Assembly (NCBI GenBank): GCA_041650995.1
Contig: JBAZJZ010000001.1
Coordinates: 427,302 to 491,301 of the forward strand
DNA: 64,000 nt
Reading direction: 5' to 3'
From: Patescibacteria group bacterium
Lineage (GTDB): Bacteria; Patescibacteriota; Patescibacteriia; XYB2-FULL-38-15
Both the position numbers and the translations under genes were made by a program. Each line of letters opens with the position of its first letter. The first letter of the stretch is position 1. The notes beneath the pieces were generated by a model. The model saw nothing but the letters and a program-made list of their open reading frames with translations. It searched no databases and was not told where the DNA came from. This document shows, one piece after another, positions 3,015 to 53,963 of this stretch.

Positions 3015-3737
3015 ATGAAAAAGGGCGCCTTCGTTTTGGTCGATGGCATTGATGGCTCCGGCAAGGCGGCGATTATTAAATCTCTGGCTGCTTGGGCTGA
3101 AAATAAAAAATTGAAAATTTTGGATTTAAAAGATTATTGGAAAATAAAACACACTTTTCCGGAGCCGGAAGAAATTGCCGAATACGACGTAATAATTTCC
3201 GCCGAACCGACTTATTCCATGGTCGGCCAGGCAATCCGCGAAGAAATTGTCCGTGAAAACAACCGACAATATTCAGCCTGGACTACGGCTGAAGCTTTTT
3301 CTCTTGACCGCGAAATTTTATACCGCCGCGTAATTCTTCCAGCGCTGGAACAAGGAAAAATAATTTTTCAGGAACGCGGCGTCACAACTTCCATAATTTA
3401 CCAACCAATCCAAAAAGAATTCCTGGAACTTGAAAAAATTTTAGAATTGCCCGGAAACAAATTAGCGCTCGAATACCGGCCGGATTTAATTATCATCGCT
3501 CTTGTTGATCCGAAAGAAGCCGTGAAGCGGATTACTGAACGGGATAAAAAAGATTATTCAATTTTTGAAAAACTCCCCTTTTTGGAAAAAATCGCCGAAA
3601 GATTTGCCGCGCCGTGGTTTCGAAAGCTTATGGAAAAACACAGCAGTGAATTTGTTTATTTAAAGACAGATAAAACCGTTTATGATACAATAAAGGAAAC
3701 TACCGATATTTGGGAAAATTTTTTAAAAAAAATATAA
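3015..3737 (+). CDS. tmk: thymidylate (dTMP) kinase-like protein
   Basis: The N-terminal FVLVDGIDGSGKAA matches the Tmk P-loop (xEGxDGxGK). 240 aa. Confidence 0.55.
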   Translation: MKKGAFVLVDGIDGSGKAAIIKSLAAWAENKKLKILDLKDYWKIKHTFPEPEEIAEYDVIISAEPTYSMVGQAIREEIVRENNRQYSAWTTAEAFSLDREILYRRVILPALEQGKIIFQERGVTTSIIYQPIQKEFLELEKILELPGNKLALEYRPDLIIIALVDPKEAVKRITERDKKDYSIFEKLPFLEKIAERFAAPWFRKLMEKHSSEFVYLKTDKTVYDTIKETTDIWENFLKKI

Positions 3738-4529: not shown

Positions 4530-6074
4530 ATGCATCTGGTCCCGGTCATTGGACTTGAAATTCATGTCCAATTAAAAACAAAATCAAAAATGTTCTGCGG
4601 TTGCGACAATACCGGCGAAGATCAGCCGCCGAACACAACCGTCTGCCCTATTTGCATGGGTCATCCTGGCACGCTCCCCGTCATCAACGAGCAGGCGTTG
4701 GAGTGGGCCGGACTTATGGCCCTGGCTTTAAATTGTAAAATTCAAAAATCTTCAAAGTTTGACCGCAAACAATATTTTTATCCCGATCTGCCAAAGGGTT
4801 ACCAAATTTCCCAATATGACAAACCTGTATGCTTGGACGGTTTTTTGGAAATTGATATTCCGACCAAAGATGAAAAAAAACAACGGCCTTGGGCGAAGAT
4901 AAAAATAAACCGTGTTCATCTCGAAGAAGATGCCGCAAAAACATTCCATAGCGAAGATGGAAAAAATAGTCTTGTTGACTATAACCGTTCTGGCACGCCA
5001 CTTCTGGAAATTGTCACCGAGCCGGACATTGCCTCGCCCCTTGAAGCAAAAATTTTCATGCAGGAATTGCGGCTTATCGCCCGCTATCTTGGAATTTCCG
5101 ACGCGGATATGGAAAAAGGTCATCTCCGCTGCGATGCTAATATTTCTCTCCGAGAAGTTCTTGACGACCCAACCAAAGAAAAAAAATTAGTAAAACTTAA
5201 CGCAAAAACCGAAATTAAAAATTTAAATTCTTTCCGAGCGGTTGAACGCGCGCTGGAATACGAAATCAAAAGGCAAACCGAACTTTGGGAAAAAGGAAAA
5301 CCGCCGACCATTACCACAACTCGCGGCTGGAACGATGTAAAACAAATAACTATAGACCAACGCACGAAAGAAGCTGAAAACGATTATCGCTATTTCCCCG
5401 AACCAGACTTGCCTCCGCTTGATTTGAGTAAACTAGAAGAAAAAGTTAAAAGCAAACTTCCTGAACTGCCTCGCGCTAAAAAAATAAGATTTGTGTCTCA
5501 ATACGAATTTACTGACGAAGAAACAAAAATTTTGATTGAAGACAAAAAACTCGCTAACTACGCGGAAAATATCATTTCCGAACTGCAAGCATGGCTCCTT
5601 TCACTAGAAGGGATTGAAGGAACAGAGGAAGAAATCTGGGAAAAAAATAAACACAAACTTGTCCGTCTTGTCGCCGGATGGCTCATAAATAAACTCTGCG
5701 GATTAATGGCTGATAATAAAATTGATATACGCCGCCTAAAAATCACTCCGGAAAATTTTGCCGAGTTTATCACCATGATTTATCAAAATAAAATTTCCGG
5801 GCCGACAGCACTGAAAATTCTTGAAGAAATGATGCTAACAGGCGGAGATCCTTCGCAGATTATGGAAAGTAAAAATCTCGGCCAGATAAGCGACGCTGGC
5901 GAGATAGAAAAAATAATTGACGAACTTCTCACCGACCACCCCGAAGAAACTGTAGAATACAAACAAGGAAAAACCGCCCTGCTCCAATTCTTCATCGGCC
6001 AAGTAATGAAAAAAACCCAAGGCAAAGCTAATCCTAAAATCGCCGAAGAAATTATTAAAAAGAAACTCGGATAG
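4530..6074 (+). CDS. gatB: Asp-tRNA(Asn)/Glu-tRNA(Gln) amidotransferase subunit B
   Basis: MHLVPVIGLEIHVQLKTKSKMFCGC..., 514 aa. The family N-terminus is unmistakable. Confidence 0.9.
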   Translation: MHLVPVIGLEIHVQLKTKSKMFCGCDNTGEDQPPNTTVCPICMGHPGTLPVINEQALEWAGLMALALNCKIQKSSKFDRKQYFYPDLPKGYQISQYDKPVCLDGFLEIDIPTKDEKKQRPWAKIKINRVHLEEDAAKTFHSEDGKNSLVDYNRSGTPLLEIVTEPDIASPLEAKIFMQELRLIARYLGISDADMEKGHLRCDANISLREVLDDPTKEKKLVKLNAKTEIKNLNSFRAVERALEYEIKRQTELWEKGKPPTITTTRGWNDVKQITIDQRTKEAENDYRYFPEPDLPPLDLSKLEEKVKSKLPELPRAKKIRFVSQYEFTDEETKILIEDKKLANYAENIISELQAWLLSLEGIEGTEEEIWEKNKHKLVRLVAGWLINKLCGLMADNKIDIRRLKITPENFAEFITMIYQNKISGPTALKILEEMMLTGGDPSQIMESKNLGQISDAGEIEKIIDELLTDHPEETVEYKQGKTALLQFFIGQVMKKTQGKANPKIAEEIIKKKLG

Positions 6075-6085
6075 AAAATCAAAAA

Positions 6086-6114
6086 CTGCTCAAATTTCCT
6101 GGGCAGTTTTTGGT
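6086..6114 (+). terminator. rho-independent terminator after gatB
   Basis: Stem CTGCTCA...TGGGCAG followed by TTTTT. Confidence 0.4.
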
Positions 6115-6178
6115 CTTGCTATCCTCTCCGCGATTTCCGCGGAGGGTCCGAGCCCATGGCAAAGAAAGGAGGAACGCC

Positions 6179-6424
6179 ATGACTCGACATGCTGAAGAGG
6201 CGCGCGTTGGAGAGGAAGGTGACGTCCCAGAGTGCATCCACAAGAAGCCCTGGGCCAAATGCGCCTGTTGCCGGGGAAAATTCGGCATGCTGGTGATCGA
6301 CCTGGACATTTTGCTCAGTCGAAACCAGCCGCCGGAAGTCGTCGGCAATCTGGTGGCAGAAGGCATCCGGAGGATGCGACGCGGAAAGGAGGAACTGGAA
6401 AGACGTGGGGCAAGTCCCAAGTAG
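6179..6424 (+). CDS. small GC-rich hypothetical protein (81 aa) with a Cys cluster (PECIHKKPWAKCACCRGK)
   Basis: AAGGAGG lies 6 nt upstream of the ATG at 6179. The ORF sits in a ~58% GC island inside ~35% GC flanks. The ORF track's longer 6110 start lacks an RBS. Confidence 0.4.
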   Translation: MTRHAEEARVGEEGDVPECIHKKPWAKCACCRGKFGMLVIDLDILLSRNQPPEVVGNLVAEGIRRMRRGKEELERRGASPK

Positions 6425-6480
6425 AATAAAACACATGAGACCAAAAAGGGCGTTTTGCTTTAAGCACCACGCCCTTAATT

Positions 6481-7413
6481 TTATTTAATCCACTTTTTTA
6501 TTTTTTCTTCTATTTCTTTATAATTTTTTATCCACTTAATTCTTTTATCACGGCGAAACCAAGTCATCTGCCGCCTGGCATACGCATGCGTCCTATATTT
6601 TATTTTTTGAGCTGCTTCTACGAGATCTTGTTTGCCCAATAAGTATTCGCCAATTTCCTTATATCCAATCCCGCTCATGGACGGAAGATTTGGATTATAT
6701 TTTTTTAATAATTTTTTTGTTTCGTTAACCAAACCGTCTTTTATCATTTTCTCCACCCGCCGGTCAATGTTTTCATAAAGTTTTTGCCGCGGAACATTTA
6801 TTCCAATTTGTAAAACATCAAATAGCGGCTCACCCTTTTCTCGCAATTTGGAAAATTGTTTGCCAGTCGCAAGACATACTTCAAGGGCGCGAATTATTCT
6901 CCGCGGATTATTGGCGTCCACTGCCTCGGCCGCGCCAGGATCAAGTTTTAATAATTTTTTATACCATTTCGCGATAGCGCCGGGTTTTTTAATTTCTTTT
7001 TCAAATTGTGCTCGCAATTTTTTATTTGGCGGCACCGCCGGAATTTCCAAATTATCAACAATAGATTGAATATATAATCCGGTTCCCCCAACTAAAAACG
7101 GCACCTTGCCGCGCTTCAAAATATCTTTAATCGCCGCAAGCGCCTTCTTCTTATAATCCGCCAAAGTAAATTCTTCGTCAGGCTTTAACACATCAAGCAA
7201 ATAATGTTCCACGCCTTTTTTATCAATCACCTTTCCTGTCCCAACATTCATTCCTTGGTAAATCTGCCTTGAATCGGCATTTACAATTTCTCCCTTAAAT
7301 TTTTTCGCCAATTTCAAAGACAAGCCCGTCTTTCCCGACGCCGTCGGACCCAAAATTACTATCAGTTTTGGCAACTGGAGTCCCGCCTTTAGGCGGGGTT
7401 TAGATATTGACAT
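6481..7413 (-). CDS. miaA: tRNA dimethylallyltransferase
   Basis: ILGPTASGKTGLSLKLAKKF P-loop, 310 aa, typical MiaA. Confidence 0.9.
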   Translation of the reverse strand: MSISKPRLKAGLQLPKLIVILGPTASGKTGLSLKLAKKFKGEIVNADSRQIYQGMNVGTGKVIDKKGVEHYLLDVLKPDEEFTLADYKKKALAAIKDILKRGKVPFLVGGTGLYIQSIVDNLEIPAVPPNKKLRAQFEKEIKKPGAIAKWYKKLLKLDPGAAEAVDANNPRRIIRALEVCLATGKQFSKLREKGEPLFDVLQIGINVPRQKLYENIDRRVEKMIKDGLVNETKKLLKKYNPNLPSMSGIGYKEIGEYLLGKQDLVEAAQKIKYRTHAYARRQMTWFRRDKRIKWIKNYKEIEEKIKKWIK

Positions 7414-7459
7414 ATTATCTTTTTTATATTAACTTAAAGGCAGCAAAGGAGGAAAAATA

Positions 7460-7684
7460 ATGACCAAGAAGACTATCCGCATAGTCGCCGCAACATTATT
7501 CGGCTTACTGGCATTGACATTTGCCTGGGCTGCGGACAGCTACGGGGACGGACCATCCTTCAGCTCTCCACCGCCACTCGCCTACTTCGTGGTGTTCGGT
7601 GGCTTTTCTATCGCATGTCTGGTAATGGCCGTTTTGTTCATTTGCAAGCCGCCGCCCTGCATGAAAGATTCGCCAAGGGAGTAA
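7460..7684 (+). CDS. small GC-rich membrane protein (74 aa)
   Basis: AAAGGAGG RBS 7 nt upstream. Two hydrophobic helices. GC-rich codons, unlike the flanking genes. Confidence 0.35.
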   Translation: MTKKTIRIVAATLFGLLALTFAWAADSYGDGPSFSSPPPLAYFVVFGGFSIACLVMAVLFICKPPPCMKDSPRE

Positions 7685-7691
7685 CAAGGTC

Positions 7692-7895
7692 ATGAAAAAA
7701 CTCAAGGGTGTGGCCGGCGGGATTGGCTACCTCTTGCTCGCGCTGATTTTTCTCGCTGGTGCCGGAGGAATGGCGACCGTTCCCAATCTCGCGCTCGCCG
7801 AACGAGCGTTCATCGTCATCGTTACGATTATCGCGGTGGTTTGCCTCTTCGCAAAAGCCATCGGTGTGGTTCGTGACGCTTGGAAAAAAGAATAG
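7692..7895 (+). CDS. small GC-rich membrane protein (67 aa)
   Basis: Starts 8 nt after the previous small ORF. Two hydrophobic helices. It lies in the same GC-rich island. Confidence 0.35.
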   Translation: MKKLKGVAGGIGYLLLALIFLAGAGGMATVPNLALAERAFIVIVTIIAVVCLFAKAIGVVRDAWKKE

Positions 7896-7924
7896 GTAAG
7901 GCTCCACCTCAAACGGGCCATTTT

Positions 7925-9202
7925 TTATCCTTCCAAAATCCATTCAAACGCTTTTTTTATTTTAACATTAAAAATTTTTCCAATCATATTCTTCTTGCCG
8001 TTGAATCTCACTCTTTTCATTTCTAAAGAATTTCCAATGCACTTTCCGTTTTTATATTCATCTACTAATACCGACACGACTTTCCCGACATATTTCTGAT
8101 TTTTTTCAAAAACAATTTTCTCCATCAAATTCTGTAAAACATCCCGCCGCCGTTTTTTTTCGGCGCGCGGCACATCGTCCTTAAACTTCGCGGCCGCTGT
8201 TCCCTCTCGCGGCGAATATATCGCGAGATACGCAATATCAAAATCTGCTTTTTTATAAAGTTCCACCGTGTTTTGAAACGATTTTTTTGTTTCACCGGGA
8301 AAACCGACAATAATGTCTGTGCCAAGCGCGATGCCTAGCCTTTTTTTATTTATTTTTGCGACGAGTTTTAAATAATCTGCAGTAGTATAACTGCGATTCA
8401 TCTGTTTTAAAACTTTATCATCCCCGGCCTGAAGCGGCAGATGAAGATAATTTACCATTTTGGGCAAAGTCAGGGCGTCAATAACTTCATTTGTCATATC
8501 GCGCGGATGTGGCGCGGTAAAAAAGATTCGTTTAATTCCTCTTATTTGATTTACCTCCCAGAGTAATGCGGCAAAAGGATGTTTATATGGATTTTTTTTG
8601 GAAAAATTTTTAGTATCATCCGGCCAATAGGCATTTACGTTTTGCCCTAAAAGAGTTATTTCAAGACATCCCCTTTTTGCTAAATTTTTTATTTCCGCCA
8701 CCACCTCAACGACAGGCCGACTCACTTCCCTGCCTCGGACGTATGGCACGGCGCAATATGAACAAAAATTATTACAGCCGGTCATGATCGGAACAAACGC
8801 AGAAAATTTTGTTGAGTATCTTGGCTCAATTTTAAAATAATGCTCGTGCCAACTTTGGCAATAATTTTTAAACTTTTCTAAATCAATAATTTGTTTTAAA
8901 TCCAAAACTAAATCAAATTTATCAATAAATTTTTTCTTGTCCCGCGGCAAAATACAGCCGGTTAAAATTGTTTTAAAATTGGGATTAACATTTTTTATTT
9001 TACTTAATTCCCTCGCCCGGCCGTATAAGCGATCCACTGCCGCCTGACGAACAGAACATGCTACGAGCACGGCCAAATCAGCCTGCTTTTCGCTTCTAGC
9101 AGGCTTATAACCAATCTTTTCAAGCACAGCCGCCACTCGTTCCGAATCGGATTTATTCATCTGACAGCCGTAAGCAATAATGTGATATTTATTTTTTCCC
9201 AT
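7925..9202 (-). CDS. miaB: MiaB/RimO-family radical-SAM methylthiotransferase
   Basis: N-terminal MTTase domain YGCQMNKSDSE and the radical SAM Cys triad CNNFCSYCAVP. 425 aa. Confidence 0.8.
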   Translation of the reverse strand: MGKNKYHIIAYGCQMNKSDSERVAAVLEKIGYKPARSEKQADLAVLVACSVRQAAVDRLYGRARELSKIKNVNPNFKTILTGCILPRDKKKFIDKFDLVLDLKQIIDLEKFKNYCQSWHEHYFKIEPRYSTKFSAFVPIMTGCNNFCSYCAVPYVRGREVSRPVVEVVAEIKNLAKRGCLEITLLGQNVNAYWPDDTKNFSKKNPYKHPFAALLWEVNQIRGIKRIFFTAPHPRDMTNEVIDALTLPKMVNYLHLPLQAGDDKVLKQMNRSYTTADYLKLVAKINKKRLGIALGTDIIVGFPGETKKSFQNTVELYKKADFDIAYLAIYSPREGTAAAKFKDDVPRAEKKRRRDVLQNLMEKIVFEKNQKYVGKVVSVLVDEYKNGKCIGNSLEMKRVRFNGKKNMIGKIFNVKIKKAFEWILEG

Positions 9203-9292
9203 AGCAATACTTTAACAAAATCATTGATTATTGACAAACCCCACTTTTTTTGCTAAAATATTGATATTAATCCATTTTTATATTATAATTTT

Positions 9293-9457
9293 ATGTCAGA
9301 ATTCAAAAGAGGTTATGAAGAGCCGCGCCGCATTGAGCCCGGCGATTGCCGACATGGCAATAAAGAAGCTACTTGTCCGGAATGTTTAAAGGACATTGAG
9401 GCCGCTGCCGAATCTCTTAAAAGATCGCGAAAACCAAAAAACCCCGAAGAAAAATAA
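9293..9457 (+). CDS. possible small zinc-ribbon-like protein (54 aa), not in the supplied ORF track
   Basis: ATG at 9293. Cys pattern C-x8-C-x2-C. Followed by a hairpin plus T-run at 9481-9505. Weak call. Confidence 0.2.
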   Translation: MSEFKRGYEEPRRIEPGDCRHGNKEATCPECLKDIEAAAESLKRSRKPKNPEEK

Positions 9458-9510
9458 AAATATCAGAATACAAAAAACTAGACAGTCCAACCAGGGCTGT
9501 CTTTTTACTC

Positions 9511-9539
9511 TTGACAAATTTATGATATCATTGTAAGGT
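9511..9539 (+). promoter_or_regulatory. sigma70-like promoter (TTGACA, 17 bp spacer, TAAGGT) for the GC-rich ORF
   Basis: TTGACA at 9511-9516, TAAGGT at 9534-9539, and a GGAGGG RBS before the ATG at 9588. Confidence 0.4.
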
Positions 9540-9587
9540 GAGGGGTTCCCTGGAAGAAGTACGAGGAATTCCGAAAGGAGGGTAACC

Positions 9588-10007
9588 ATGGGCAAGGTAG
9601 TAAGCATCTTCGCCGATGGTCGACTCCATCGGCAATTCCTAGACCGAATCACGAGGCTTGACCTCGAGTACATGAATGGTAACCTTTACCTCAAGCTGAC
9701 TACCAGCGGTAACGAACTCCCCGGCGGGCTAGATGAGTGGCTGAGAAAATACGCGAGGTTTCTCTTCGTTGTAAATAACGGAGAAAAGATCTTCGTAGGA
9801 CGAAGCTCCGGCAGGACGAGCTTCACTGGCGATCCGGACAATGTCCGCTACGTGGGGATCGAATTCCGCGGCCCTAAAGGGGGAAGTGTGAATCTCCTCA
9901 AGGAGCATACGCTAGAAATCACCTTGGCAGCTGGCAAGGAGCAGAAGTCATTCACGGCTATCAAGGAGGGCAAGAAGGACACACCCGAGATTGAGATAAT
10001 CTCGTAG
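9588..10007 (+). CDS. GC-rich hypothetical protein (139 aa)
   Basis: RBS GGAGGG plus ATG. ~55% GC. A 139-codon open frame of this length is unlikely by chance. Flanked by its own promoter and terminator. Confidence 0.45.
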   Translation: MGKVVSIFADGRLHRQFLDRITRLDLEYMNGNLYLKLTTSGNELPGGLDEWLRKYARFLFVVNNGEKIFVGRSSGRTSFTGDPDNVRYVGIEFRGPKGGSVNLLKEHTLEITLAAGKEQKSFTAIKEGKKDTPEIEIIS

Positions 10008-10010
10008 GCG

Positions 10011-10050
10011 CATAGGACCGACGCCAAGAACCGCTTCGGTCCTCTTTTTA
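10011..10050 (+). terminator. rho-independent terminator
   Basis: GGACCGA...TCGGTCC stem followed by TCTTTTTATC. Confidence 0.5.
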
Positions 10051-10150
10051 TCTTATTATCTTATCCCCGCGATTTGCGAGGATTGACTATTCTCTTCAAA
10101 TACGCTATAATTTTATGTTAAAATTAAAGAATAATTCTTGATCAATTTAT

Positions 10151-11530
10151 ATGCCACGAATTCCAACGGCAGAAAAAATTTCCGGACCAGAAACAGAAAA
10201 AATTGCGACTCATATTGCACTAACTTCCGAAGCCTCAAAAAATCATCCCGATCGTAACGAGGATGCCGCCTTTGTTGACCCAGCACAAGAATTAGCTGGC
10301 ATTTTTGATGGCATGGGCGGTGGCTTAGACGGAAAACAGGCTAGCGAATTGGCGGCTAAAATCTCTTTTGAAGAACTATCTAAAGTTCCCGAAGGAGCTG
10401 ATGCGAAAAAATGGGAAACGGCTATCAAACGAGCCCTGGAAAAAACTCAGGAAGAAGTTATAAAATTAGGCAACCAACTATTTTTTGAACAACTGGATGA
10501 TCCATTTATTGAAGCAACTTATAGAGATAAACCTCAAGATAAAATTCAGGAATTAATTATAGAAAAAGGAAAATCCCCTGCCGGAACAACAGCTTCTATC
10601 GTAAAAATGATTGAGCGGCCAGACGGCGGCGCTGACTTGGTGTTTGGCCATACTGGCGACAGTAGAATTTATGTTTTGAAAAAAGGTGAAGAATTAAAAA
10701 AATTAACAAAAGACCAGGGAGCCCTTGAAGAGTCTGTTCAAAATAAATATATTACCCAAGAAGAAGCTGATTTTATTGATCAGGCAACTAGTAAAGAAGA
10801 AATAATTCAAAAGTTCGGACCAGAAAGAGGCAACACGGTAGCCTTTCTTTACAAAGATTTGAGAAGAGGTGTAAAGAGCGCCCTTGGACTTAGCGGAAGC
10901 GAATTCCAAACAGGTATTGAACACCTTGAACCCGGCGACCTAGCAATTGTTACTTCCGATGGTATTCATGATAATTTGACTGATAAGGAAATCCGAGCAG
11001 AAATAATTAAAGGCGGAACGCCCGAAGAAATTTCCGCGCGGCTAGTTAAAGCCGCCAGAAAACGTGTTGCCGGAAAAGTTTTAAGATCTAAGGAAGATGA
11101 TATGACTGCGCTGGTTATGGAAACTCCGGAAATTGTTGAAGCCGCCGAAGCGGTTGAAGAACCTGCCCTTTCCCCGGAACAAGCGGCAAAAATTGAGGAT
11201 GATTTAAGAAAACTTCAAGAGATGGCAAAATATCTTAAGAATTTATTGACCGTGGCTAAAACCATAGAAAAAGGCCTTAAGCCGATTACCAGCAAAAAAA
11301 GAGTTGAAGAAATTATGGGTCTGGGCGGAGCAAGAGGTGTTGAGGATGCTCTTTACACGACCGAGACGGAAATTCTTAAAGCAGAGCGCGACTTAGCCGG
11401 ACATAAAGGAGACATTGCGATCGTACGAGAAACTACCACAAAACTTCGCCAAACTCGAGAAGGAAGAGAAAGACAACTTAAGGCGCGAGACCAGGAAGAT
11501 ATCGAGCAAATAAAATCCAGGGTAGCATAA
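10151..11530 (+). CDS. PP2C-family Ser/Thr protein phosphatase with a C-terminal coiled-coil extension
   Basis: PP2C motifs FDGMGGG, GHTGDSRIYV and VTSDGIHDNL. The C-terminal ~150 aa are rich in charged residues. Confidence 0.6.
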   Translation: MPRIPTAEKISGPETEKIATHIALTSEASKNHPDRNEDAAFVDPAQELAGIFDGMGGGLDGKQASELAAKISFEELSKVPEGADAKKWETAIKRALEKTQEEVIKLGNQLFFEQLDDPFIEATYRDKPQDKIQELIIEKGKSPAGTTASIVKMIERPDGGADLVFGHTGDSRIYVLKKGEELKKLTKDQGALEESVQNKYITQEEADFIDQATSKEEIIQKFGPERGNTVAFLYKDLRRGVKSALGLSGSEFQTGIEHLEPGDLAIVTSDGIHDNLTDKEIRAEIIKGGTPEEISARLVKAARKRVAGKVLRSKEDDMTALVMETPEIVEAAEAVEEPALSPEQAAKIEDDLRKLQEMAKYLKNLLTVAKTIEKGLKPITSKKRVEEIMGLGGARGVEDALYTTETEILKAERDLAGHKGDIAIVRETTTKLRQTREGRERQLKARDQEDIEQIKSRVA

Positions 11531-13470: not shown

Positions 13471-14652
13471 TTATTTAACAATAATACTCACATTATTCTT
13501 TATCTGCGGAACTTTTTTCACCCAAAAAGGTGAAAATTTTATGGTAATGCGCTCAATCTCCGGATAAATGGATAAATATTGAATTATTTTTTCTTTCGAA
13601 AGTCCGATAAATTTATCTTTGTCAAAAATCGAGCTGTCTGACTTTAGAGACATTTCTCCTGAAAGATGAACCATAATATTAGCTTCGCCGCTCGTAACAT
13701 TATATTTTTCCACTAAGAAAGTCATACCATTATAATCAACACTTGTCAATTCTTTATCAGCCGGAACTTTGGCTCCCAATTCTTGCCGCGCCAAACTCTC
13801 TAAATCTCGCTCATAAAAAGCTACTCCTACGACTTTCATTTTCAAATTAATGGTAAACTTATCGCCTGTCGCACCCGCCTTAAGATCGCTGCGTTTTTCG
13901 GAAATTTCTTTTATCACTACTTTACCAAAGATTTCTCCGGCCGAAGGCATTTCCTCTTTTAAACCCTCCATCACTTGCGTTGAAAGAGTTTGAGTCAAAT
14001 CGTTATAGGCATTATCTAAATCAGCTTGTGCAACAAACCGCTCTTCATGTTCTCCACCATGCATTGGGGAAAAGCTCTGAGCATAAATTTTATCCTGCAG
14101 CCCCTCCCAAAGTCCCGGAATAATAAATTTTGTGGGCCCGAGTTTCGCAGCAGCCTCCGAGGGAGTATCGGCATAAACTTCCACATTCTCTACTTTACCC
14201 CCGGCTGGAACGCTAACTCTATTTTTTAAACGATACAAAATTCCTTCCGGAGATAAAAGACGCGTCGTAGCCACAAGAGGCTGATCTTTGTTGTAATTAT
14301 TAAAAATTGTAACGGTTCCACCGACATCCCCTTGGACTTTTTTTATTCCAGTAGTTGGATATTCCTGACTACCCGAAACATTAGCTTCCTTCACTTTTCC
14401 TGAAATGGTAGCGGCACCCGGCACGGCAACTGATGGTTCGGCCGGATTTTGGATAGCGACTTCTTTCAAATCCGCGATAAAATCTGCGCTAACCGGCTCT
14501 TTGGCAACAGTCACCGCGATTTCCGCTCTACTCAAAACAAAATACGCCGCGAGAATTACCAAAATACTTGTCAGGGCCACAAAAATAAAAGCGATTCTCC
14601 GATAAAAACTAACTGGCGCTTCGTGTTTCCGCGATGTTTTACTTTTTGCCAT
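13471..14652 (-). CDS. membrane-anchored hypothetical protein
   Basis: N-terminal transmembrane helix IAFIFVALTSILVILAAYFVL followed by a ~350-aa extracytoplasmic region. Confidence 0.4.
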   Translation of the reverse strand: MAKSKTSRKHEAPVSFYRRIAFIFVALTSILVILAAYFVLSRAEIAVTVAKEPVSADFIADLKEVAIQNPAEPSVAVPGAATISGKVKEANVSGSQEYPTTGIKKVQGDVGGTVTIFNNYNKDQPLVATTRLLSPEGILYRLKNRVSVPAGGKVENVEVYADTPSEAAAKLGPTKFIIPGLWEGLQDKIYAQSFSPMHGGEHEERFVAQADLDNAYNDLTQTLSTQVMEGLKEEMPSAGEIFGKVVIKEISEKRSDLKAGATGDKFTINLKMKVVGVAFYERDLESLARQELGAKVPADKELTSVDYNGMTFLVEKYNVTSGEANIMVHLSGEMSLKSDSSIFDKDKFIGLSKEKIIQYLSIYPEIERITIKFSPFWVKKVPQIKNNVSIIVK

Positions 14653-20597: not shown

Positions 20598-20879
20598 CTA
20601 CTTCCGGGATTTTTTCTTTCGCTCACCAACAAACTCAACCATTTTTTCTACCGCCTTACCAATCAACCCGAGATACGCTGAAGTATTTTCAAATTTTTCT
20701 TTTATCCTTTCCACTGTCTGGCTGATTTTTTCCATTTTTTCGCGAAAGCTCGTGATTACTTTATTGGCTTGCCGCAGCATCATTATAACATAATAAAGCA
20801 TCCACGAAAGAAAAATCGTCAGCCATAAAACTGAAAAAGCAAGAACTACGTAAAGAAGATCCTTACTAGTTTCTATCAT
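20598..20879 (-). CDS. small membrane protein (DUF948-like: N-terminal TM plus coiled coil)
   Basis: 93 aa. One N-terminal TM helix followed by a charged helical tail. Confidence 0.35.
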   Translation of the reverse strand: MIETSKDLLYVVLAFSVLWLTIFLSWMLYYVIMMLRQANKVITSFREKMEKISQTVERIKEKFENTSAYLGLIGKAVEKMVEFVGERKKKSRK

Positions 20880-30898: not shown

Positions 30899-33142
30899 AT
30901 GAAAAAAACAAAACGCCAAGATTTTTATCGCGTTCTCCTGATATTTTTTTCTTTCGCGTTTTTATTTTTTTCTAATCCTGTTTCAGCAAAAGAAGTCCCC
31001 TGCGAATACATCCCAAGGGACAGCAGCGGAAAAATCATTTACTTTGAGGGTACTGACGCCAACCACCAACCATGGAGTAGAGAAATGGAGGAAGCAGAAT
31101 GTTTGGCAAAATGCAGTAGTGAGTCGCCTACCGGCTTAAAATTCGACTGCGCTGGAGGGTGGAGCGGCGGCTTATTCGAAAAACCAACTGGCTGTGATCC
31201 TGCTCGCACAACATGCGGCCCGGTTATTAATCCAATTCTAACAGTTAATTGCAAATTTACACCAAGAAGACCAGACGGCTCAACGCTTGATGACGCCTGG
31301 GAGAGACTAACTCCTTCAGAGAGTGAATGCCGAAGTCTTTGTGCTGATAGTACAGTGCTCTGCTCAGTCACTTGCGGCACAATTATGGACACTCTCTGCT
31401 GCGACGAAACAAAAACAACTTGTGAAGCGACAGCTATTGCAGCGACCACCTCTTCGACCACTTCCCCCTATCAATTTGACTCCATAACTCCAAGTCTAGA
31501 AATTCCCCTGCCCACCCTTCCGAGTTTTTCTGAATTCACAGATCTGACTCTTCAGGGAGAGGCACCAAACAGATATCTCTGGATTCCTTGGATTGGCCAA
31601 TACATTGCTGCAATTTATAAATACGCGATTGGAATAGTAGGAGTTTTAGCTGGGATTATGATTGTAGTTGGAGGTCTTCTCTGGCTAACAGCCGGGGGGT
31701 CGGCTGAAAGAGTTTCCACGGCAAAAAGCTTTATTGAAAGTTCTTTGGTTGGCTTGGTTATTGCCCTGACTTCCTACATGTTGCTTTATGTCATAAACCC
31801 TAATTTGGTGGGGTTTGAGTCGTTGAAGGTAAAGTATGTTGAAAGGGTAACGCCCGAAGCGGGCGGAGGAGGAATGGAAGCAAGGGGTGAAATCACCTCA
31901 GGTGGTGCGGGATCTGCCCAGGCCTTCAGAGCTATAAGCTGCGATGGACTCGCAGAAAGCGGCGAAGAATTTGAAGCTTTTTTCACTTCTTATTATGTTC
32001 CTGCTCCTTACGGTAATCCTTCTGGTTATACAGGCATCGCTTCAAATGAAAGTACAGGTGCCCCTTTAAACGACTCTATGAAAGATTTCTTCTGCGCCGT
32101 GGCAATGGAGTGTTCTTGCCCCAATGGTGAGAAAGATCAATCATATAAATGTTACGCAAAAAGTGGCGTATTCGCCAAAGGCGGCGCGAGAAACGGCTGG
32201 TGGCCATGCAAAGCTTTTTCTCGAGATACAAGCTATTGCGGAACAAGCGATACTCTGCCTGACGGACAGCTTCGCCACCGTCCGGGAGAAACTGTTGCTG
32301 CGGATTGCAACTGCACTTCCCATCGCTCTGGCGACTGCAAAATTGAAATAACTTTACGAAATGGCAGTAAAAAAATATTACAAATTACCGATACGGGATC
32401 AGGTATTAGAGGCAGGCGATTTGATTTTTTCACTACCATCGGTGGGGAAAAATTAAGTGGTGTTTTTAAAGTAAAATTTCTGCCCGGATGCACTCCAGCC
32501 GGAGAATATGGCGTCCCCCGTGGCAGTGCTTGCACTTTTGCGGCGCCTCCTCCCGGTCCGCTTGGCCCCCAACCAGCCAGTGCGACGAGCACGACTAGTG
32601 AAGGAAAAATTGCTGTTATTGGCGATTCAATAACAGCTGATGGCACTCAATATCAAAGTTACCTGCGATCCAACTGCGTAGGAAAAACCATGGAAATTTT
32701 CGCGCAAGTGGGTCAACAAACTTCTTGGATGCTCGAACAATTTAGAAACAATGTTAAAGGCAAAGGATTTGACGGATTAATTATCCTGGGCGGAGTTAAT
32801 GATTTATCTAGCGGAAGAACTTCTTCTCAAATTCAAACTAATTTAAATGCTATTTATTCTGAAGCTAAAACAGACGGAATAAAAGTAACTGCTGTCACGG
32901 TCTTACCATGGAAAGACTATTCGAGATGGGATACCACCAAACAGACAAATACTGAAGCACTTAATCGCTGGATTCTCGGTTCGTCAGCTGACGTGAAGGT
33001 TAACGCCTATGCTGAATTCGGAGATTCAAGCGATTCGGCAAAACTAAAAAGTATTTATGATCCTGGAGATCATTTGCATCCTAACGCCGCTGGTTCAAGA
33101 AAATTGGGTGAAATCATTGTTAACGCAGGAGCCTGCAGGTGA
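30899..33142 (+). CDS. secreted multidomain protein: Cys-rich N-domain, VirB2/TrbC-like TM hairpin, 3D (MltA-like) domain, SGNH/GDSL hydrolase
   Basis: Signal peptide ...VSA|KE. TM hairpin IVGVLAGIMIVVGGLLWLTAGGSAERVSTAKSFIESSLVGLVIALTSYMLLYVI. 3D-domain-like PGETVAAD...ITDTGSGIRGRRFDFFT. SGNH blocks GDSITADG, GGVNDL and DHLHP. Confidence 0.6.
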   Translation: MKKTKRQDFYRVLLIFFSFAFLFFSNPVSAKEVPCEYIPRDSSGKIIYFEGTDANHQPWSREMEEAECLAKCSSESPTGLKFDCAGGWSGGLFEKPTGCDPARTTCGPVINPILTVNCKFTPRRPDGSTLDDAWERLTPSESECRSLCADSTVLCSVTCGTIMDTLCCDETKTTCEATAIAATTSSTTSPYQFDSITPSLEIPLPTLPSFSEFTDLTLQGEAPNRYLWIPWIGQYIAAIYKYAIGIVGVLAGIMIVVGGLLWLTAGGSAERVSTAKSFIESSLVGLVIALTSYMLLYVINPNLVGFESLKVKYVERVTPEAGGGGMEARGEITSGGAGSAQAFRAISCDGLAESGEEFEAFFTSYYVPAPYGNPSGYTGIASNESTGAPLNDSMKDFFCAVAMECSCPNGEKDQSYKCYAKSGVFAKGGARNGWWPCKAFSRDTSYCGTSDTLPDGQLRHRPGETVAADCNCTSHRSGDCKIEITLRNGSKKILQITDTGSGIRGRRFDFFTTIGGEKLSGVFKVKFLPGCTPAGEYGVPRGSACTFAAPPPGPLGPQPASATSTTSEGKIAVIGDSITADGTQYQSYLRSNCVGKTMEIFAQVGQQTSWMLEQFRNNVKGKGFDGLIILGGVNDLSSGRTSSQIQTNLNAIYSEAKTDGIKVTAVTVLPWKDYSRWDTTKQTNTEALNRWILGSSADVKVNAYAEFGDSSDSAKLKSIYDPGDHLHPNAAGSRKLGEIIVNAGACR
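30991..31845 (+). repeat. 855-bp perfect direct repeat, copy A, shared 5' module of the tandem paralogs
   Basis: Repeat ends compared base by base. The encoded 285 aa and the antisense ORFs 31039-31461 and 33294-33716 are identical to copy B. Confidence 0.85.
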
Positions 33143-33159
33143 GAGATTAAATTAAAAAT

Positions 33160-34863
33160 ATGATAAAATACCGCCGCAAAATTTTCCTGCTTATTTTTTT
33201 AATTCCTTTTTTATTTATATTTTTTTATGAGACAACTTCAGCGGTAGAAGTCCCCTGCGAATACATCCCAAGGGACAGCAGCGGAAAAATCATTTACTTT
33301 GAGGGTACTGACGCCAACCACCAACCATGGAGTAGAGAAATGGAGGAAGCAGAATGTTTGGCAAAATGCAGTAGTGAGTCGCCTACCGGCTTAAAATTCG
33401 ACTGCGCTGGAGGGTGGAGCGGCGGCTTATTCGAAAAACCAACTGGCTGTGATCCTGCTCGCACAACATGCGGCCCGGTTATTAATCCAATTCTAACAGT
33501 TAATTGCAAATTTACACCAAGAAGACCAGACGGCTCAACGCTTGATGACGCCTGGGAGAGACTAACTCCTTCAGAGAGTGAATGCCGAAGTCTTTGTGCT
33601 GATAGTACAGTGCTCTGCTCAGTCACTTGCGGCACAATTATGGACACTCTCTGCTGCGACGAAACAAAAACAACTTGTGAAGCGACAGCTATTGCAGCGA
33701 CCACCTCTTCGACCACTTCCCCCTATCAATTTGACTCCATAACTCCAAGTCTAGAAATTCCCCTGCCCACCCTTCCGAGTTTTTCTGAATTCACAGATCT
33801 GACTCTTCAGGGAGAGGCACCAAACAGATATCTCTGGATTCCTTGGATTGGCCAATACATTGCTGCAATTTATAAATACGCGATTGGAATAGTAGGAGTT
33901 TTAGCTGGGATTATGATTGTAGTTGGAGGTCTTCTCTGGCTAACAGCCGGGGGGTCGGCTGAAAGAGTTTCCACGGCAAAAAGCTTTATTGAAAGTTCTT
34001 TGGTTGGCTTGGTTATTGCCCTGACTTCCTACATGTTGCTTTATGTCATAAACCCTAATTTGGTGGGGTTTGAGTCGTTGAAGGTAAAGTATGTTGAAAG
34101 AATCCCTACCAACGAAATTGTAAGTAACCTTTTAAGTACAACTGAGACTTTCACGGGAGATCCTGAGTCGAATAGACCTGCCCCGCAATCGTTTCCTGAC
34201 TGCCCAATTGACCTTAGCGCCCCCCATGTCGAAGGCGAGGGACCGAATAATCCTCGCGCACAAGAATTTAAACAAAAAATAATGACTGTAATAACAGGGG
34301 TAACCCCAAGAGAGAAAGTTGTGCAACTTGCCCAAGCAGCTTTAAAATGCGGAGTAACACTCGGAAGCTGTGGAAAATTTAGTGAAAATATTAATGCTCT
34401 AGCCGGAATCTCCGGTAGAGGAAGTTCTCTTCATGAAATTACTGGAGATCAAATGAAATTCTTATGTAAACTAAATTGTGGGGATCGTCCTGGCGTAAGT
34501 AATATTTGTGTTTCCCCCAGAGAAGCTCCTTGTCTTTCCGAAGCTAGAAGCATTCCGACCGCAGAAAAGAAAAAAACCGTCTACGATAAATTAAAAAATG
34601 AAATCTCGGGAAGTAGGGGTTGCGCCACAACATGGCCGGACTGCTGGGCAAACGATTTAGAGATAGGCGATTCATTTGTGATTTTCAACGCTAATTCCGA
34701 TCCGCCAGGCAATCATACAGCAATTTTCTTAGGGTGGGCTTCTGAGGGAAAGGCATACACGATTAATGGTGCCGCCGGAAGAGTTCCGTGGGAACATGCT
34801 TGGTGTATAAAAAGTACCTGTCCTAACCCATATCCTCTCGTAAGGGTTTATAAAGCTCAATAA
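33160..34863 (+). CDS. secreted paralog: same Cys-rich N-domain and TM hairpin, different C-terminal CHAP/NlpC-P60-like domain
   Basis: The N-terminal 310 aa are identical to the upstream gene except the signal peptide. The C-terminus has candidate catalytic Cys (GSCGKF) and His (GNHTAIFLGW), typical spacing for CHAP-type amidases/peptidases. Confidence 0.5.
   Translation: MIKYRRKIFLLIFLIPFLFIFFYETTSAVEVPCEYIPRDSSGKIIYFEGTDANHQPWSREMEEAECLAKCSSESPTGLKFDCAGGWSGGLFEKPTGCDPARTTCGPVINPILTVNCKFTPRRPDGSTLDDAWERLTPSESECRSLCADSTVLCSVTCGTIMDTLCCDETKTTCEATAIAATTSSTTSPYQFDSITPSLEIPLPTLPSFSEFTDLTLQGEAPNRYLWIPWIGQYIAAIYKYAIGIVGVLAGIMIVVGGLLWLTAGGSAERVSTAKSFIESSLVGLVIALTSYMLLYVINPNLVGFESLKVKYVERIPTNEIVSNLLSTTETFTGDPESNRPAPQSFPDCPIDLSAPHVEGEGPNNPRAQEFKQKIMTVITGVTPREKVVQLAQAALKCGVTLGSCGKFSENINALAGISGRGSSLHEITGDQMKFLCKLNCGDRPGVSNICVSPREAPCLSEARSIPTAEKKKTVYDKLKNEISGSRGCATTWPDCWANDLEIGDSFVIFNANSDPPGNHTAIFLGWASEGKAYTINGAAGRVPWEHAWCIKSTCPNPYPLVRVYKAQ
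33246..34100 (+). repeat. 855-bp perfect direct repeat, copy B
   Basis: Identical to 30991-31845. Divergence begins right after GTTGAAAG. Confidence 0.85.
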
Positions 34864-38895: not shown

Positions 38896-38938
38896 TTTTA
38901 TAATCCTTTTTAATTCAGATTAGTTCTATGCGCCCGCG

Positions 38939-39010
38939 AGGAATCGAACCTCGATCACAAGCTCCGCAAGCTTGTACTCTATCCGTTGAGCTACGGGCGC
39001 AAAAAAATAA
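38939..39010 (-). tRNA. tRNA-Arg (anticodon read as GCG)
   Basis: Cloverleaf folded manually: acceptor GCGCCCG/CGGGCGC, anticodon stem CAAGC/GCTTG, loop TTGCGGA, T-loop TTCGATT. Confidence 0.6.
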
Positions 39011-40098: not shown

Positions 40099-40818
40099 CT
40101 ATCCCTTTGCCAACGCTAAACCCAAGACTTCTCTTGCCCCGACGTTTTTCAAAACCCTCGCGCATGCTTCCATGGTCGCACCGGTTGTAAAGACATCATC
40201 TATTAAAATGATTTTTTGATTTAAAATTTTTGATATATCAACCGCTAAAAAAGCTTCTCTCATATTTTCTTTTCTCCCAGCCCCATCCAAACTAACCTGC
40301 GACGCGGTCAGCCTAGAACGCGCTATAACATCTTTTTCCACGGAGCAACCAAAATATTCTGAAATTTTTAAAGCAAGCAATTCGGACTGGTTAAATCCTC
40401 TTTCCAGTAATCTTTTTTTGTGCAAAGGAATCGGTGTAATAAAATCAGGTTTCCCCACCTGCCCCTCAACTTTTTTCAATTCTCTAAATAAAAGTGCGCC
40501 AATCGGCAGAGCTAACTCTTCCACAAATCTATATTTCATCCCATGAATCAAATTTTTTATAACCCCGTTATTGTAAGAATAGAGAGTAATAATTTTATCT
40601 AAATTTTCACCACGAGTAAAATGTATGTCTGGCATTATTTTTTCAAAACAACTTTCACAGAGCCACTCTCCTTCTCTCCCGCAACCCAAACACTCGATCG
40701 GAAAAATAATATCAAAAATAAACTTTTTGACTCGAGCCAATCCAAAAATCATTTCCCCTCCACGGATTGTTAAAATTATTAACCAACAATTATTGCTGCA
40801 CCCATTTTGCTTCGTCAA
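40099..40818 (-). CDS. comFC: ComF-family protein (zinc finger plus phosphoribosyltransferase domain)
   Basis: CLGC...C..C N-terminal Cys pairs. PRTase motif IILIDDVFTTGATM. Confidence 0.7.
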   Translation of the reverse strand: MTKQNGCSNNCWLIILTIRGGEMIFGLARVKKFIFDIIFPIECLGCGREGEWLCESCFEKIMPDIHFTRGENLDKIITLYSYNNGVIKNLIHGMKYRFVEELALPIGALLFRELKKVEGQVGKPDFITPIPLHKKRLLERGFNQSELLALKISEYFGCSVEKDVIARSRLTASQVSLDGAGRKENMREAFLAVDISKILNQKIILIDDVFTTGATMEACARVLKNVGAREVLGLALAKG

Positions 40819-52027: not shown

Positions 52028-52494
52028 ATGAAGAAGTTCTGGATGGTGACGATGATCGCGATCCTGTTCGGTCTCACGACGACCGGCTGCCCGGACGGTG
52101 ACGACGACTACGACACGGATGCGGACATGGACTCCGACAGCGATGCCGGCTCCGACGCGGACGCCGAGACCGACACGGCCGAGGACGGCACGACGGACGA
52201 GACCGCCGACTGCCCGAGCGTGGCTGGCGAGTGGGCGTTGACATACCACAGTGATGCGACGGGTTTCGATGAGCACTACATCCTCACGCTCGAACAGAGC
52301 GGCTGCTCCTTGAGTGGCTACGACGATGATGGCGGTGCGTTCTCCGGCACCGTCAACGAAGACGGCTCTCTCTCTGGCGCGATTACGGTGGTACCCGTAC
52401 ACTGACTGGCAATCTCGTGAGTCCTCCTCGACTGGAGGGAAACTGGACTTCTACGGGGGGTGGATACGGCCAATGGTGGGCCGATCGCCAGTAA
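52028..52494 (+). pseudogene. GC-rich acidic lipoprotein, copy 1, frameshifted near 52385-52395
   Basis: GGAGG RBS, MKKFWMVTMIAILFGLTTTGC lipobox-like signal, poly-Asp linker. Homology to copy 2 (…TGNFTQTPPRMEGLW…WWADPQ*) continues in the +2 frame (…TGNLVSPPRLEGNW…WWADRQ*) after a premature stop. Confidence 0.55.
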
Positions 52495-52558: not shown

Positions 52559-53186
52559 TTATTTCGGCACAACTATGACACGGCCAGCGAAGGATGTCCA
52601 GTGCGGTTGGACATCACCGATGTCACAATCACTCAGATAACACCCTCTTCCCGTCCCCGTACAATCTCCATTACACCACCCCCAGTTGTCAGTAAGCTGA
52701 ACTCTTGGTTTGAAGACGCAGCAGGAGCCGTTGCCGGCAATAGCGCCATCTACGTTTTCAGGGCAAACTGCGGCGAAACAGTTGGAGTCTGAATCAGAAA
52801 CACAGGCGCGGACAGTACTCGCGGCGTTAGAAGGGCATTTATAAGTATGGGTAAAGTAGAAATAATCATCAGTGCAGGCACGATCTTCGGAATGGGCAAA
52901 ATCTGAGTTATCACAGGCATCTTTGCCAAGATGGTTTTTGTAGCGAGCGTTTCTTGTTCCGGCGATATCGCTATCATCATTCCAGTCGACTTGAACGGAT
53001 CTGATCGGACCGGTATCTTTATCGGCCGTGCCGAAGAATTGCATGGTGGCGACGTATTGGCCGCCGTAACTAACGACATTTTTAGGTTCTGTAGCACCGG
53101 ATGCGGTAAAGCCAAAGCCGGAGATAAAAATTTTCCCTCGCCCCTTGGGGGAGAGGGTTAGGGTGAGGGGTTCCGTAAGACGACCG
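52559..53186 (-). pseudogene. orphan C-terminal cassette homologous to the last ~200 aa of the giant protein
   Basis: Encodes ISGFGFTASGATEPKNVVSYGGQYVATMQFFGTADK...CPSNAASTVRACVSDSDSNCFAAVCPENVDGAI...CCVFKPRVQLTDNWGWCNG...VIVVPK. It aligns with the giant protein C-terminus, including identical stretches of 32 aa and 19 aa. Homology extends upstream of the annotated ATG to an in-frame stop at 53186-53188. No N-terminal region, signal peptide or promoter is present. Confidence 0.65.
53135..53157. repeat. CCCTCGCCCC-TTG-GGGGAGAGGG hairpin followed by TTAGGG, related to the 1832-1852 hairpin
   Basis: Same architecture and same TTAGGG tail as the hairpin after thyA. Confidence 0.45.
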
Positions 53187-53492: not shown

Positions 53493-53963
53493 ATGACGAA
53501 GTTCTGGATGGTGGCGATGATCACGATCCTGTTCGGTCTCACGACCGGCTGCCCCGACGGGGACGACGACTACGACGCGGAAATGGACGCCGACAGCGAT
53601 GCCGGCTCCGACGCGGACGCGGACGCCGATCCCGACACGGCCGAGGACGGCACGACGGACGAGAGCACGGCCTGCCCGAACATCGCCGGCGACTGGGCGC
53701 TGACGTACCGGAACGACTTGGGTTACGAAGGATACTACACCCTCACGCTCGAGCAGGACGGATGTCTTGTGATTGGGTTGGATGACCTTTGCGAGTACTC
53801 CGGCACCATTTCGGAGAGTGGCTACGTTTCACTTTTCCGAGATTGTGCTGCTTCCGATCGTACGATCACCGGCAACTTCACCCAGACCCCCCCCCGCATG
53901 GAAGGATTGTGGGATGAATCGGAGGGAACTTCCCACGGCACATGGTGGGCTGATCCCCAGTGA
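53493..53963 (+). CDS. GC-rich acidic lipoprotein, copy 2, intact
   Basis: GGAGG RBS. MTKFWMVAMITILFGLTTGC lipoprotein-like signal. Asp-rich linker DGDDDYDAEMDADSDAGSDADADADPD, then a ~100-aa Cys-containing domain. Confidence 0.6.
   Translation: MTKFWMVAMITILFGLTTGCPDGDDDYDAEMDADSDAGSDADADADPDTAEDGTTDESTACPNIAGDWALTYRNDLGYEGYYTLTLEQDGCLVIGLDDLCEYSGTISESGYVSLFRDCAASDRTITGNFTQTPPRMEGLWDESEGTSHGTWWADPQ

Follow-up and report, generated by a model that had tools for sequence, protein, structure and literature searches.

In a stretch of 64,000 nucleotides from a Patescibacteria metagenome-assembled genome (the window, taken from a contig of 567 kb that encodes the NCBI proteins MFA5128813-19), three short GC-rich islands occupy the intergenic slots between gatB, miaA, miaB and a PP2C phosphatase gene. 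Judged from their sequences and those of their relatives, the islands are probably lineage-restricted accessory cassettes of a moron-like build, maintained as an expression class that depends on Shine-Dalgarno (SD) sequences and structured mRNA. From fixed intergenic slots, the cassettes encode a putative zinc-knuckle micro-protein of the CHCC type, membrane micro-proteins (one or two, joined at island 2 by a small soluble partner in some relatives) and a beta-sandwich protein. Members of the class are marked by strong conserved SDs, structured GC-rich starts and mRNAs, and C- or G-ending codons in A/T-rich codon boxes, while the rest of the genome relies on SD-independent initiation on unstructured A/U-rich leaders. 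The island genes and their neighbours are:

gatB, 4530-6074, + strand: flank of island 1
i1_81, 6179-6424, + strand: island 1, 81 aa, a C-x-H-x6-C-x2-C knuckle followed by two helices
miaA, 6481-7413, - strand: between islands 1 and 2
i2_74, 7460-7684, + strand: island 2, 74-aa membrane micro-protein
i2_67, 7692-7895, + strand: island 2, 67 aa, TM-B family, a hairpin of two transmembrane helices whose AWRKE tail is conserved
miaB, 7925-9202, - strand: between islands 2 and 3
i3_139, 9588-10007, + strand: island 3, 139-aa soluble protein, an N-terminal helix plus beta-sandwich in an AlphaFold2 (AF2) model with a predicted local distance difference test score (pLDDT) of 70
PP2C phosphatase gene, 10151-11530, + strand: flank of island 3

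The G+C content of the window is 42.4% (mean 42.5%, standard deviation 5.7%, in 300-nt windows), whereas it rises to 59.3% at 6120-6419 in island 1, 55.3% at 7560-7859 in island 2 and 53.3% at 9700-9999 in island 3, values reached by only 1.0%, 2.0% and 3.1% of 300-nt windows, respectively. A previous inspection of the letters alone (the sequence-only reading) had pointed out this contrast and the small open reading frames (ORFs) of 81, 74, 67 and 139 aa, and had proposed sliding-window and codon-usage profiles as a check. These profiles confirm the contrast at 53-59% for the islands against 42% for the window, and the four ORFs are found at the positions given above; the value of about 35% that had been assigned to miaA, miaB and gatB was too low, the measured content of gatB, miaA, miaB and PP2C being 38-42%. 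Because G+C at third codon positions (GC3) is 0.62-0.66 in the four island ORFs and 0.30-0.46 in the surrounding genes, amino-acid composition alone is not the source of the contrast. The GC-rich stretch opens after the AT-rich promoter and closes at the terminator. Given that its limits thus run from leader to terminator, GC-richness is a property of the transcript.

The islands differ from their surroundings in translation signals as well. SD energies were calculated for the 21 nt upstream of each start against the anti-SD. Across 45 ordinary genes of the window the median is -0.9 kcal/mol and 11% lie at -7 or lower, with gatB, miaA, miaB, PP2C, thyA, dnaE, pheS and pheT all lacking an SD. 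By contrast, an energy of -8 kcal/mol or lower is found for six of six GC3-rich genes, namely the four island genes and two lipoprotein genes (-8.1 to -12.4), versus 4 of the 45 others (Fisher p = 1.2e-5). The near-consensus ribosome-binding sites proposed for the island genes are indeed present as GGAGG for i1_81 (6168-6172, -11.9 kcal/mol, GC3 0.65), i2_74 (7448-7452, -11.8 kcal/mol, GC3 0.64) and i3_139 (9577-9581, -12.4 kcal/mol, GC3 0.66), while i2_67 has the weaker GGGAG (7677-7681, -8.1 kcal/mol, GC3 0.62). SD-less genes have A/T-rich upstream regions instead (for example at the starts 4530, 7413, 9202, 10151, 19825 and 24460). The minimum free energy (MFE) of the start region from -30 to +30 has a median of -12.6 for the GC3-rich genes versus -5.1 kcal/mol (p = 0.0015), and mRNA folding per nucleotide amounts to -0.33 to -0.40 kcal/mol in the islands against about -0.2 in flanking coding segments.

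Relatives were gathered by a MiaA scan of a genome collection, exact-protein look-ups and a metagenome scan. The resulting clade set (L001-L006, L081-L096 and the window) represents about 18 independent assemblies with a MiaA identity of 67-86% and a background GC of 41-48%; gene order is common to the clade, and the same gatB-miaA, miaA-miaB and miaB-PP2C slots hold GC-rich DNA. In these relatives gatB, miaA, miaB, PP2C, rplK and rplA are without an SD, while the island SDs are conserved in all. The GC3 of island genes is likewise 0.58-0.75 in every genome versus 0.30-0.53 for flanking genes. Since both features persist across the clade, they appear to be maintained rather than passively inherited. 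As one deeply diverged case, i3_139 of the window and its L004 counterpart differ at 0.47 of nonsynonymous sites (pN) and 0.72 of synonymous sites (pS, saturated), and GC3 is 0.66 in both copies; by a two-state decay argument, passive amelioration would have erased most of the signal by saturation.

The shift in codon usage is confined to certain codon boxes. We compared 46 pooled island genes, which are phylogenetically related, with 27,668 flank codons:

TTC: island 0.79, flank 0.21
TAC: island 0.81, flank 0.28
ATC: island 0.66, flank 0.18
AAC: island 0.67, flank 0.23
GTC: island 0.43, flank 0.18
AAG: island 0.55, flank 0.19

By contrast, third positions of the GCN, CCN, GGN and CGN boxes (Ala, Pro, Gly, Arg) stand at about 0.6 in island and flank sets alike, although a uniform GC-raising force such as donor composition, mutation bias or biased gene conversion would take these strong boxes to about 0.9. 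Gene conversion and amelioration were rejected as the main cause on account of this codon-box pattern. GC-biased gene conversion at recombination hot spots would agree with the allele exchange, gain and loss seen at the slots (below); however, a uniform drive from weak to strong base pairs is at odds with the unshifted strong boxes, and the adjacent ends of gatB, miaA and miaB have no GC gradient, the boundaries coinciding with transcript ends. We therefore disfavour it as very improbable.

Translational selection offers another account, by which very highly expressed genes are marked by C-ending NNY codons and strong SDs. The largest shifts do fall in the NNY codons TTC, TAC, ATC, AAC, CAC and GAC, near-consensus promoters go with the strong SDs, and rplK and rplA of the relatives show a mild C-ending bias (0.34-0.64) in the same direction. 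However, rplK and rplA have no SD, their shift is much weaker, and AAG and GAG are not raised in them (0.14-0.28 versus 0.5-0.8 in island genes), so that high expression alone is not enough. Moreover, G+C at first and second codon positions (GC1 and GC2) and the Lys-to-Arg ratio are shifted in island genes too, which argues for a pressure on the nucleic acid rather than on tRNA choice. On this balance the high-expression account seems an unlikely one.

The distribution of the islands shows that they come and go within the clade. L001 and L006 lack island 1, their gatB-miaA gaps of 66 and 79 nt containing a single terminator hairpin, and L004 lacks island 2 and has a miaA-miaB gap of 16 nt, whereas none of the relatives examined is without island 3; the insertion polymorphism that had been anticipated at these intergenic sites is thus real. 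Alleles also move independently of their flanks: the i1 genes of the window and L004 have a pS of 0.32 while gatB and miaA stand at 0.67, and, conversely, L003 and L081 have close flanks (gatB pS 0.34) but i1 alleles that are far apart (pN 0.40). The cassettes are therefore gained, lost and exchanged as alleles within the clade, yet are old there. Comparison of empty with occupied sites detected no target duplication, and a search for direct or terminal repeats returned only the shared ribosome-binding motif, with no integrase or tRNA target found.

Protein-database and HMM (hidden Markov model) searches with the small proteins found homologues only in the slots of this clade wherever contigs were examined. 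In 5.8 billion protein clusters, the three families searched are represented by only 9, 12 and 11 proteins, and an HMM scan of 1.84 billion representatives returned only 8 for the 139-aa family. IMG/VR viral contigs contained no match to the i3 and i1 profiles, the TM-B alignment being too variable for such a scan. No homologue was found outside the syntenic slots of the clade in the protein or viral collections searched, and all contigs examined had the same slot.

Beyond the clade, a crude scan of 60 other Patescibacteria loci indicated that SD-poor genes are common, SD-less starts preceded by A/T-rich sequence prevailing in most of these loci, and that SD-led GC-rich small genes are almost confined to the clade. 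L059, a distant locus that is SD-poor and has 39% GC, contains SD-led ORFs at 3490-3648 and 9422-9931 (both on the - strand; GC3 0.72 and 0.55), one of them adjoining miaA, and may be a second case of the GC-rich SD-led pattern. In L006 a GC-rich (GC3 0.64), strongly SD-led gene for a Cys-rich protein of 71 aa (1284-1499 in window orientation) lies between rplK and a gene for a conserved 145-aa membrane protein; it is absent in L002, L003 and L004. A functional link of the cassettes to miaA and miaB was considered and rejected, given the similar cassette beside rplK in L006 and the lipoprotein genes elsewhere.

Several points weigh against the reading of the islands as a maintained SD-dependent class. 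Our sample is confined to a single 64-kb window and to stretches of about 20 kb from the relatives. The use of SDs is deduced from their conservation, and neither an rRNA nor an rpsU gene occurs in the window or the fetched loci. Structure in excess of composition is found in island 1 only. Three SD-led genes of the window (13471-14652, 20598-20879 and 40099-40752) are not GC-rich, which means that the coupling between SD and GC is not absolute; the first of them encodes 393 aa with no Pfam match and the second 93 aa. Polarised synonymous substitutions in island genes run from GC to AT about 2-fold over AT to GC, an excess lying within the range of the mirror-image parsimony artefact of flanking genes. 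Finally, much the same codon table would be expected from a donor that has about 52-56% GC and strongly prefers C-ending codons; codon usage alone is therefore insufficient against a foreign origin.

The last two points bear on our main rival explanation, in which the islands are foreign cassettes that entered the ancestor of the clade, or are still entering, from an unsampled, SD-using donor (organism, plasmid or phage) of moderately higher GC; they would have carried their SD and codon style along, and their composition would be a slowly decaying or repeatedly refreshed relic. Atypical composition and translation signals, presence and absence at the slots, their variable content (including a DUF559 endonuclease-domain gene in the island-2 slot of L005), the discordant i1 allele phylogeny and the extra cassette beside rplK in L006 all agree with such an origin. 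It is opposed by the lack of homologues outside the clade slots in the protein and viral collections searched, by the lack of an integrase, tRNA target or direct or terminal repeats, by a GC3 that is as high in deeply diverged lineages, by strong boxes without excess GC3 and by promoters of the genome's own type. The strong boxes set the islands apart from the lipoprotein gene at 52028-52405, which has a uniform high-GC pattern with a GC3 of 0.82-0.83 in all codon boxes (strong boxes 0.83). The lipoprotein genes had been thought to share the compositional signature of the islands; they are GC-rich, but the gene at 52028-52405 is shifted in all boxes and the islands in A/T-rich boxes only. Likewise, acquisition from a high-GC host or phage, as proposed in the sequence-only reading, is not borne out, given the absence of outside homologues, the persistence of GC3 at saturation and the unshifted strong boxes. 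We regard the foreign-donor explanation as the strongest competitor, though rather improbable. The alternative that had been offered alongside import, selection for GC-rich structured mRNA, fits better, with the qualification already given that fold stability exceeds composition only in island 1.

We also considered whether the islands could be structured non-coding RNAs (ncRNAs) or assembly chimeras in which ORFs arise by chance. GC-rich DNA does yield ORFs in many frames, and island 1, with its conserved structured leader, folds better than dinucleotide shuffles (z = -3.5, compared with -0.1 for island 2 and -1.8 for island 3). However, a search of the islands against Rfam gave no match at the gathering threshold or at E <= 10, and the ratio of nonsynonymous to synonymous substitution rates (dN/dS) is well under 1, at 0.15-0.41 for the i1_81 family and 0.24-0.37 for the i3_139 family. 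Reading frames, start codons, SDs and motifs are conserved, length variation is in frame, and antisense ORFs in the islands are not conserved. Given that dN/dS of the flanking gatB, miaA, miaB, PP2C and thrS is 0.05-0.18, the island ORFs are real protein genes under purifying but relaxed selection that evolve several-fold faster than their neighbours. The same architecture in about 18 independent assemblies from different samples excludes chimeric assembly. Islands with the same sequence in all relatives that scored as ncRNA would have spoken for the opposite; they are present in most relatives, but their sequences differ and score as coding. We consider the ncRNA and chimera explanation refuted as the main one. 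The conserved promoters and SDs point instead, as had been suspected, to small, separately expressed genes with signals unlike those of their neighbours. The small proteins have no significant match in Pfam, PHROGs, PADLOC or NCBIfam (holin-like hits with E = 0.02-0.05 ranked highest), and profile searches against PDB sequences gave nothing below E = 0.2; the toxin/antitoxin-like or regulatory character suggested in the sequence-only reading is conjectural. The cassette proteins most plausibly have a small accessory function, either in regulation or at the envelope.

Island 1 combines the putative zinc-knuckle gene with a leader of about 110 nt (6075-6186), which is nearly invariant among class-A alleles despite a synonymous divergence of 30-50%. 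Its elements are:

6075-6117, + strand: hairpin 1 with a U-run, gatB terminator and first element of the island-1 leader (inverted repeat I14)
6123-6146, + strand: leader hairpin 2, arms CCUCUCCGCG / CGCGGAGGG, 9 pairs in the consensus fold
6149-6186, + strand: leader hairpin 3, in whose consensus fold CAUGGC pairs with the start-codon-containing GCCAUG
6446-6476, strand not assigned: bidirectional terminator hairpin common to i1_81 and the convergent miaA (inverted repeat I21)

In the consensus fold of 8 relatives, hairpin 1 has an invariant stem of 15 bp and a variable loop. The arms of hairpin 2 look like anti-SD and SD sequences, and at one of its pairs a compensatory change is seen, with CG in half of the 8 sequences and UA in the other half. 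The SD GGAGG lies in the loop of hairpin 3. The upstream ATG of this hairpin is out of frame in the window and in frame in some relatives, indicating a stem arm rather than a start codon. The leader matches no Rfam family and might act in translational control. The terminator hairpin at 6446-6476 is kept in all occupied sites, while empty sites have one different hairpin. A promoter scan found no promoter for island 1, which has terminators on both sides.

The ORF of i1_81 was left out of the NCBI annotation. The Cys cluster that had been noticed in its product does exist, but its pattern is better described as C-x-H-x6-C-x2-C than as C-x11-C-x-CC, since the 11 sequences compared, which span three allele classes, all have C19, H21, C28 and C31; the tail (MRRGKEE..RRG.SP) is conserved as well. 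From the spacing of the ligands we predict a CHCC zinc-knuckle micro-protein, although no Pfam zinc-finger model matches it. An AF2 model with a pLDDT of 61 shows two helices and is too weak for a fold search. The i1 protein of L003 has 126 aa, its helical module being internally duplicated.

The motif of i1_81 recurs in a small gene located between miaB and island 3:

s54, 9293-9457, + strand: 54 aa, same C-x-H-x6-C-x2-C motif as i1_81

This gene has its own promoters (9231-9289) and terminator (9480-9502), and its profile similarity to the i1 family is weak (hhalign, E = 6.5e-4, probability 28%). With a GC3 of 0.36 and an SD energy of +2.9 kcal/mol it is neither GC-rich nor SD-led and can be set against the island genes as an example of the native style. 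Only 4 nt separate its ATG from the TATAAT box upstream, and s54 may thus be leaderless.

Island 2 is bounded by the following signals:

7407-7435, + strand: promoter-like region, TTGACA followed by an AT-rich -10 region
7900-7926, strand not assigned: hairpin plus U-run resembling a terminator, located where i2_67 and miaB converge, read from the sequence and absent from the scanner list

The TTGACA and TATATTAA are conserved in 11 genomes; the promoter scan gave an overlapping 9/12 match. The i2_74 protein appears to begin with a helix that resembles a signal peptide and ends in AWA, and to be anchored by a transmembrane helix at its C-terminus; it has orthologues in L089, L090 and L093. The TM-B family of i2_67 comprises 11 proteins, and all members traced to contigs belong to this clade. 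Among relatives the number of small genes in the island-2 slot varies from one to three, and these belong to several families. In five of them the hairpin-protein gene overlaps the start of a gene for a soluble protein of 79-88 aa (MAETSAEKY...), which is absent from the window. The DUF559 gene found in this slot in L005 is AT-rich and lies on the opposite strand.

Island 3 contains the signals described in the sequence-only reading:

9511-9539, + strand: promoter, TTGACA (9511-9516), 17 nt, TAAGGT (9534-9539)
10014-10050, + strand: intrinsic terminator of i3_139, a hairpin followed by UCUUUUU, from the sequence and the MFE fold

Both had been predicted for this island, and both hold up: 12 genomes have kept the -35 box together with a -10 box resembling TATAAT (the promoters of islands 2 and 3 are of the sigma-70 type, each with a perfect TTGACA), although the promoter scan listed an overlapping TTTACT-16-TATCAT instead, and the terminator was missed by the scanner because its loop is longer than 8 nt. 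Only 12 homologues of the i3_139 protein were found, and all those that could be assigned to a contig occupy the same slot. A Foldseek search against PDB and BFVD gave no significant match, with TM-scores <=0.42 to generic beta-sandwiches only. The i3 protein of L002 has 164 aa, its N-terminal segment being duplicated.

Phage morons are autonomous promoter-gene-terminator cassettes (Cumby et al. 2012, PMC3594210). The islands resemble them as small independent transcription units between genes that are adjacent in related genomes, with a composition unlike that of their neighbours, an accessory cargo and a presence that varies among relatives. Islands 2 and 3 have their own promoter and terminator, and island 1 partly so, its promoter not having been found; insertion between adjacent genes is evident from the empty gatB-miaA (L001, L006) and miaA-miaB (L004) sites. 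By contrast, the islands do not reside in a prophage, their neighbours being gatB, miaA, miaB, PP2C and thrS, and sequence and fold searches returned no viral relatives for them. They also differ from morons in that island 3 is in every relative examined and in that their contrast is long-lived and tied to another mode of initiation.

A second comparison is with the SD-blind Bacteroidia, in which SD-containing exceptions exist, including rpsU/bS21 autoregulation (PMC7797042, PMC9976891, PMC13000453). The Bacteroidia paradigm also comprises an anti-SD that is present in 16S rRNA but sequestered by bS21, bS18 and bS6. As in those bacteria, most genes here are SD-less and a few have strong conserved SDs, which implies a separately controlled translation class. 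The present case differs in concerning Patescibacteria, in that the SD-led genes are lineage-specific small proteins rather than rpsU, and in the GC-rich codon coupling, which is not described for Bacteroidia. In ribosomes of the candidate phyla radiation (CPR), the anti-SD is reported to have been lost in part of Parcubacteria (PMC9297842). The SD-led exceptions of Bacteroidia are the nearest functional analogue of the islands and phage morons the nearest structural one, while neither corresponds fully.

Horizontally acquired genomic islets, recognised by their atypical composition, are like the islands in standing out sharply from their surroundings, in carrying small hypothetical genes and in occurring patchily. 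In bacteria, however, DNA gained from outside and orphan genes generally have a higher AT content than the host. The islands differ from such islets in having no donor, mobility gene or repeat that could be found, and in a contrast that is undecayed across the clade and restricted to A/T-rich boxes. Small membrane toxins and type I toxin-antitoxin systems of the hok/sok type are similar in their tiny transmembrane peptides, their intergenic positions and a structured mRNA with an occluded start region, as in the island-1 leader. However, no toxin or antitoxin model matched in Pfam, PHROGs, PADLOC or NCBIfam and no antisense RNA was identified, and the leader with the occluded start belongs to the soluble zinc-knuckle gene rather than to the membrane peptides.

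Elsewhere in the window, the two lipoprotein genes (52028-52405 and 53493-53963) are paralogous and encode Asp-rich products with a lipobox-like N-terminus (MxKFWMV...GC). Their GC3 is about 0.8, a repeated upstream segment is common to both, and they look like high-GC DNA. An ORF of 161 aa on the - strand (52559-53044) repeats the C-terminal ~160 residues of a Cys-rich giant protein of 2781 aa (54045-62390, - strand) and may be a duplicated or cassette-like alternative C-terminus. A tRNA-Arg at 38928-39001 (- strand) has the anticodon GCG; most bacteria have tRNA-Arg ACG, modified to ICG, rather than GCG. Two large proteins with type IV secretion system (T4SS) pilin domains (30899-34863, + strand; 41427-43340, - strand), one with a GDSL lipase domain, together with a TraG/VirB4-like ATPase suggest that the cell surface carries an apparatus resembling those of type IV secretion or conjugation; these genes adjoin several large proteins without a family match.

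In the reading that we favour, a structured mRNA would be unable to use the default SD-independent initiation and would need pairing between SD and anti-SD, a proposal that makes mechanistic sense, and the features of the class would be kept by selection acting either on the mRNA or on how it is translated; they would then not be a fading foreign relic. A broader reading, which we put forward tentatively and hold to be possible but doubtful, is that two translation regimes coexist in this clade: an AT-rich, SD-less bulk that includes ribosomal protein genes, and a few GC-rich, structured, strictly SD-dependent and lineage-specific micro-protein genes that form a selectively maintained regulon. 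By analogy with the bS21-free ribosomes of Flavobacteria, translation of the regulon could call for a certain state of the ribosome or for certain conditions. A literature search did not find a GC-rich, SD-led gene class described in CPR bacteria.

Atypical base composition is routinely taken as a sign of recent horizontal transfer. The islands show a sharp contrast that does not extend beyond the transcript, but this contrast is old and box-specific, and where it occurs SD-independent initiation gives way to SD-dependent initiation. If the two-regime reading is true, base composition at the level of the gene would serve regulation instead of recording ancestry. For annotation, the 81-aa gene is a case missed by the NCBI pipeline. 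Should the pattern be genome-wide, it would provide a natural system for the use of the anti-SD on a special gene set in an SD-poor bacterium and would call for caution in composition-based calls of horizontal transfer in Patescibacteria, and the clade-specific zinc knuckle, membrane peptides and beta-sandwich protein would become candidates for symbiosis-linked regulated functions.

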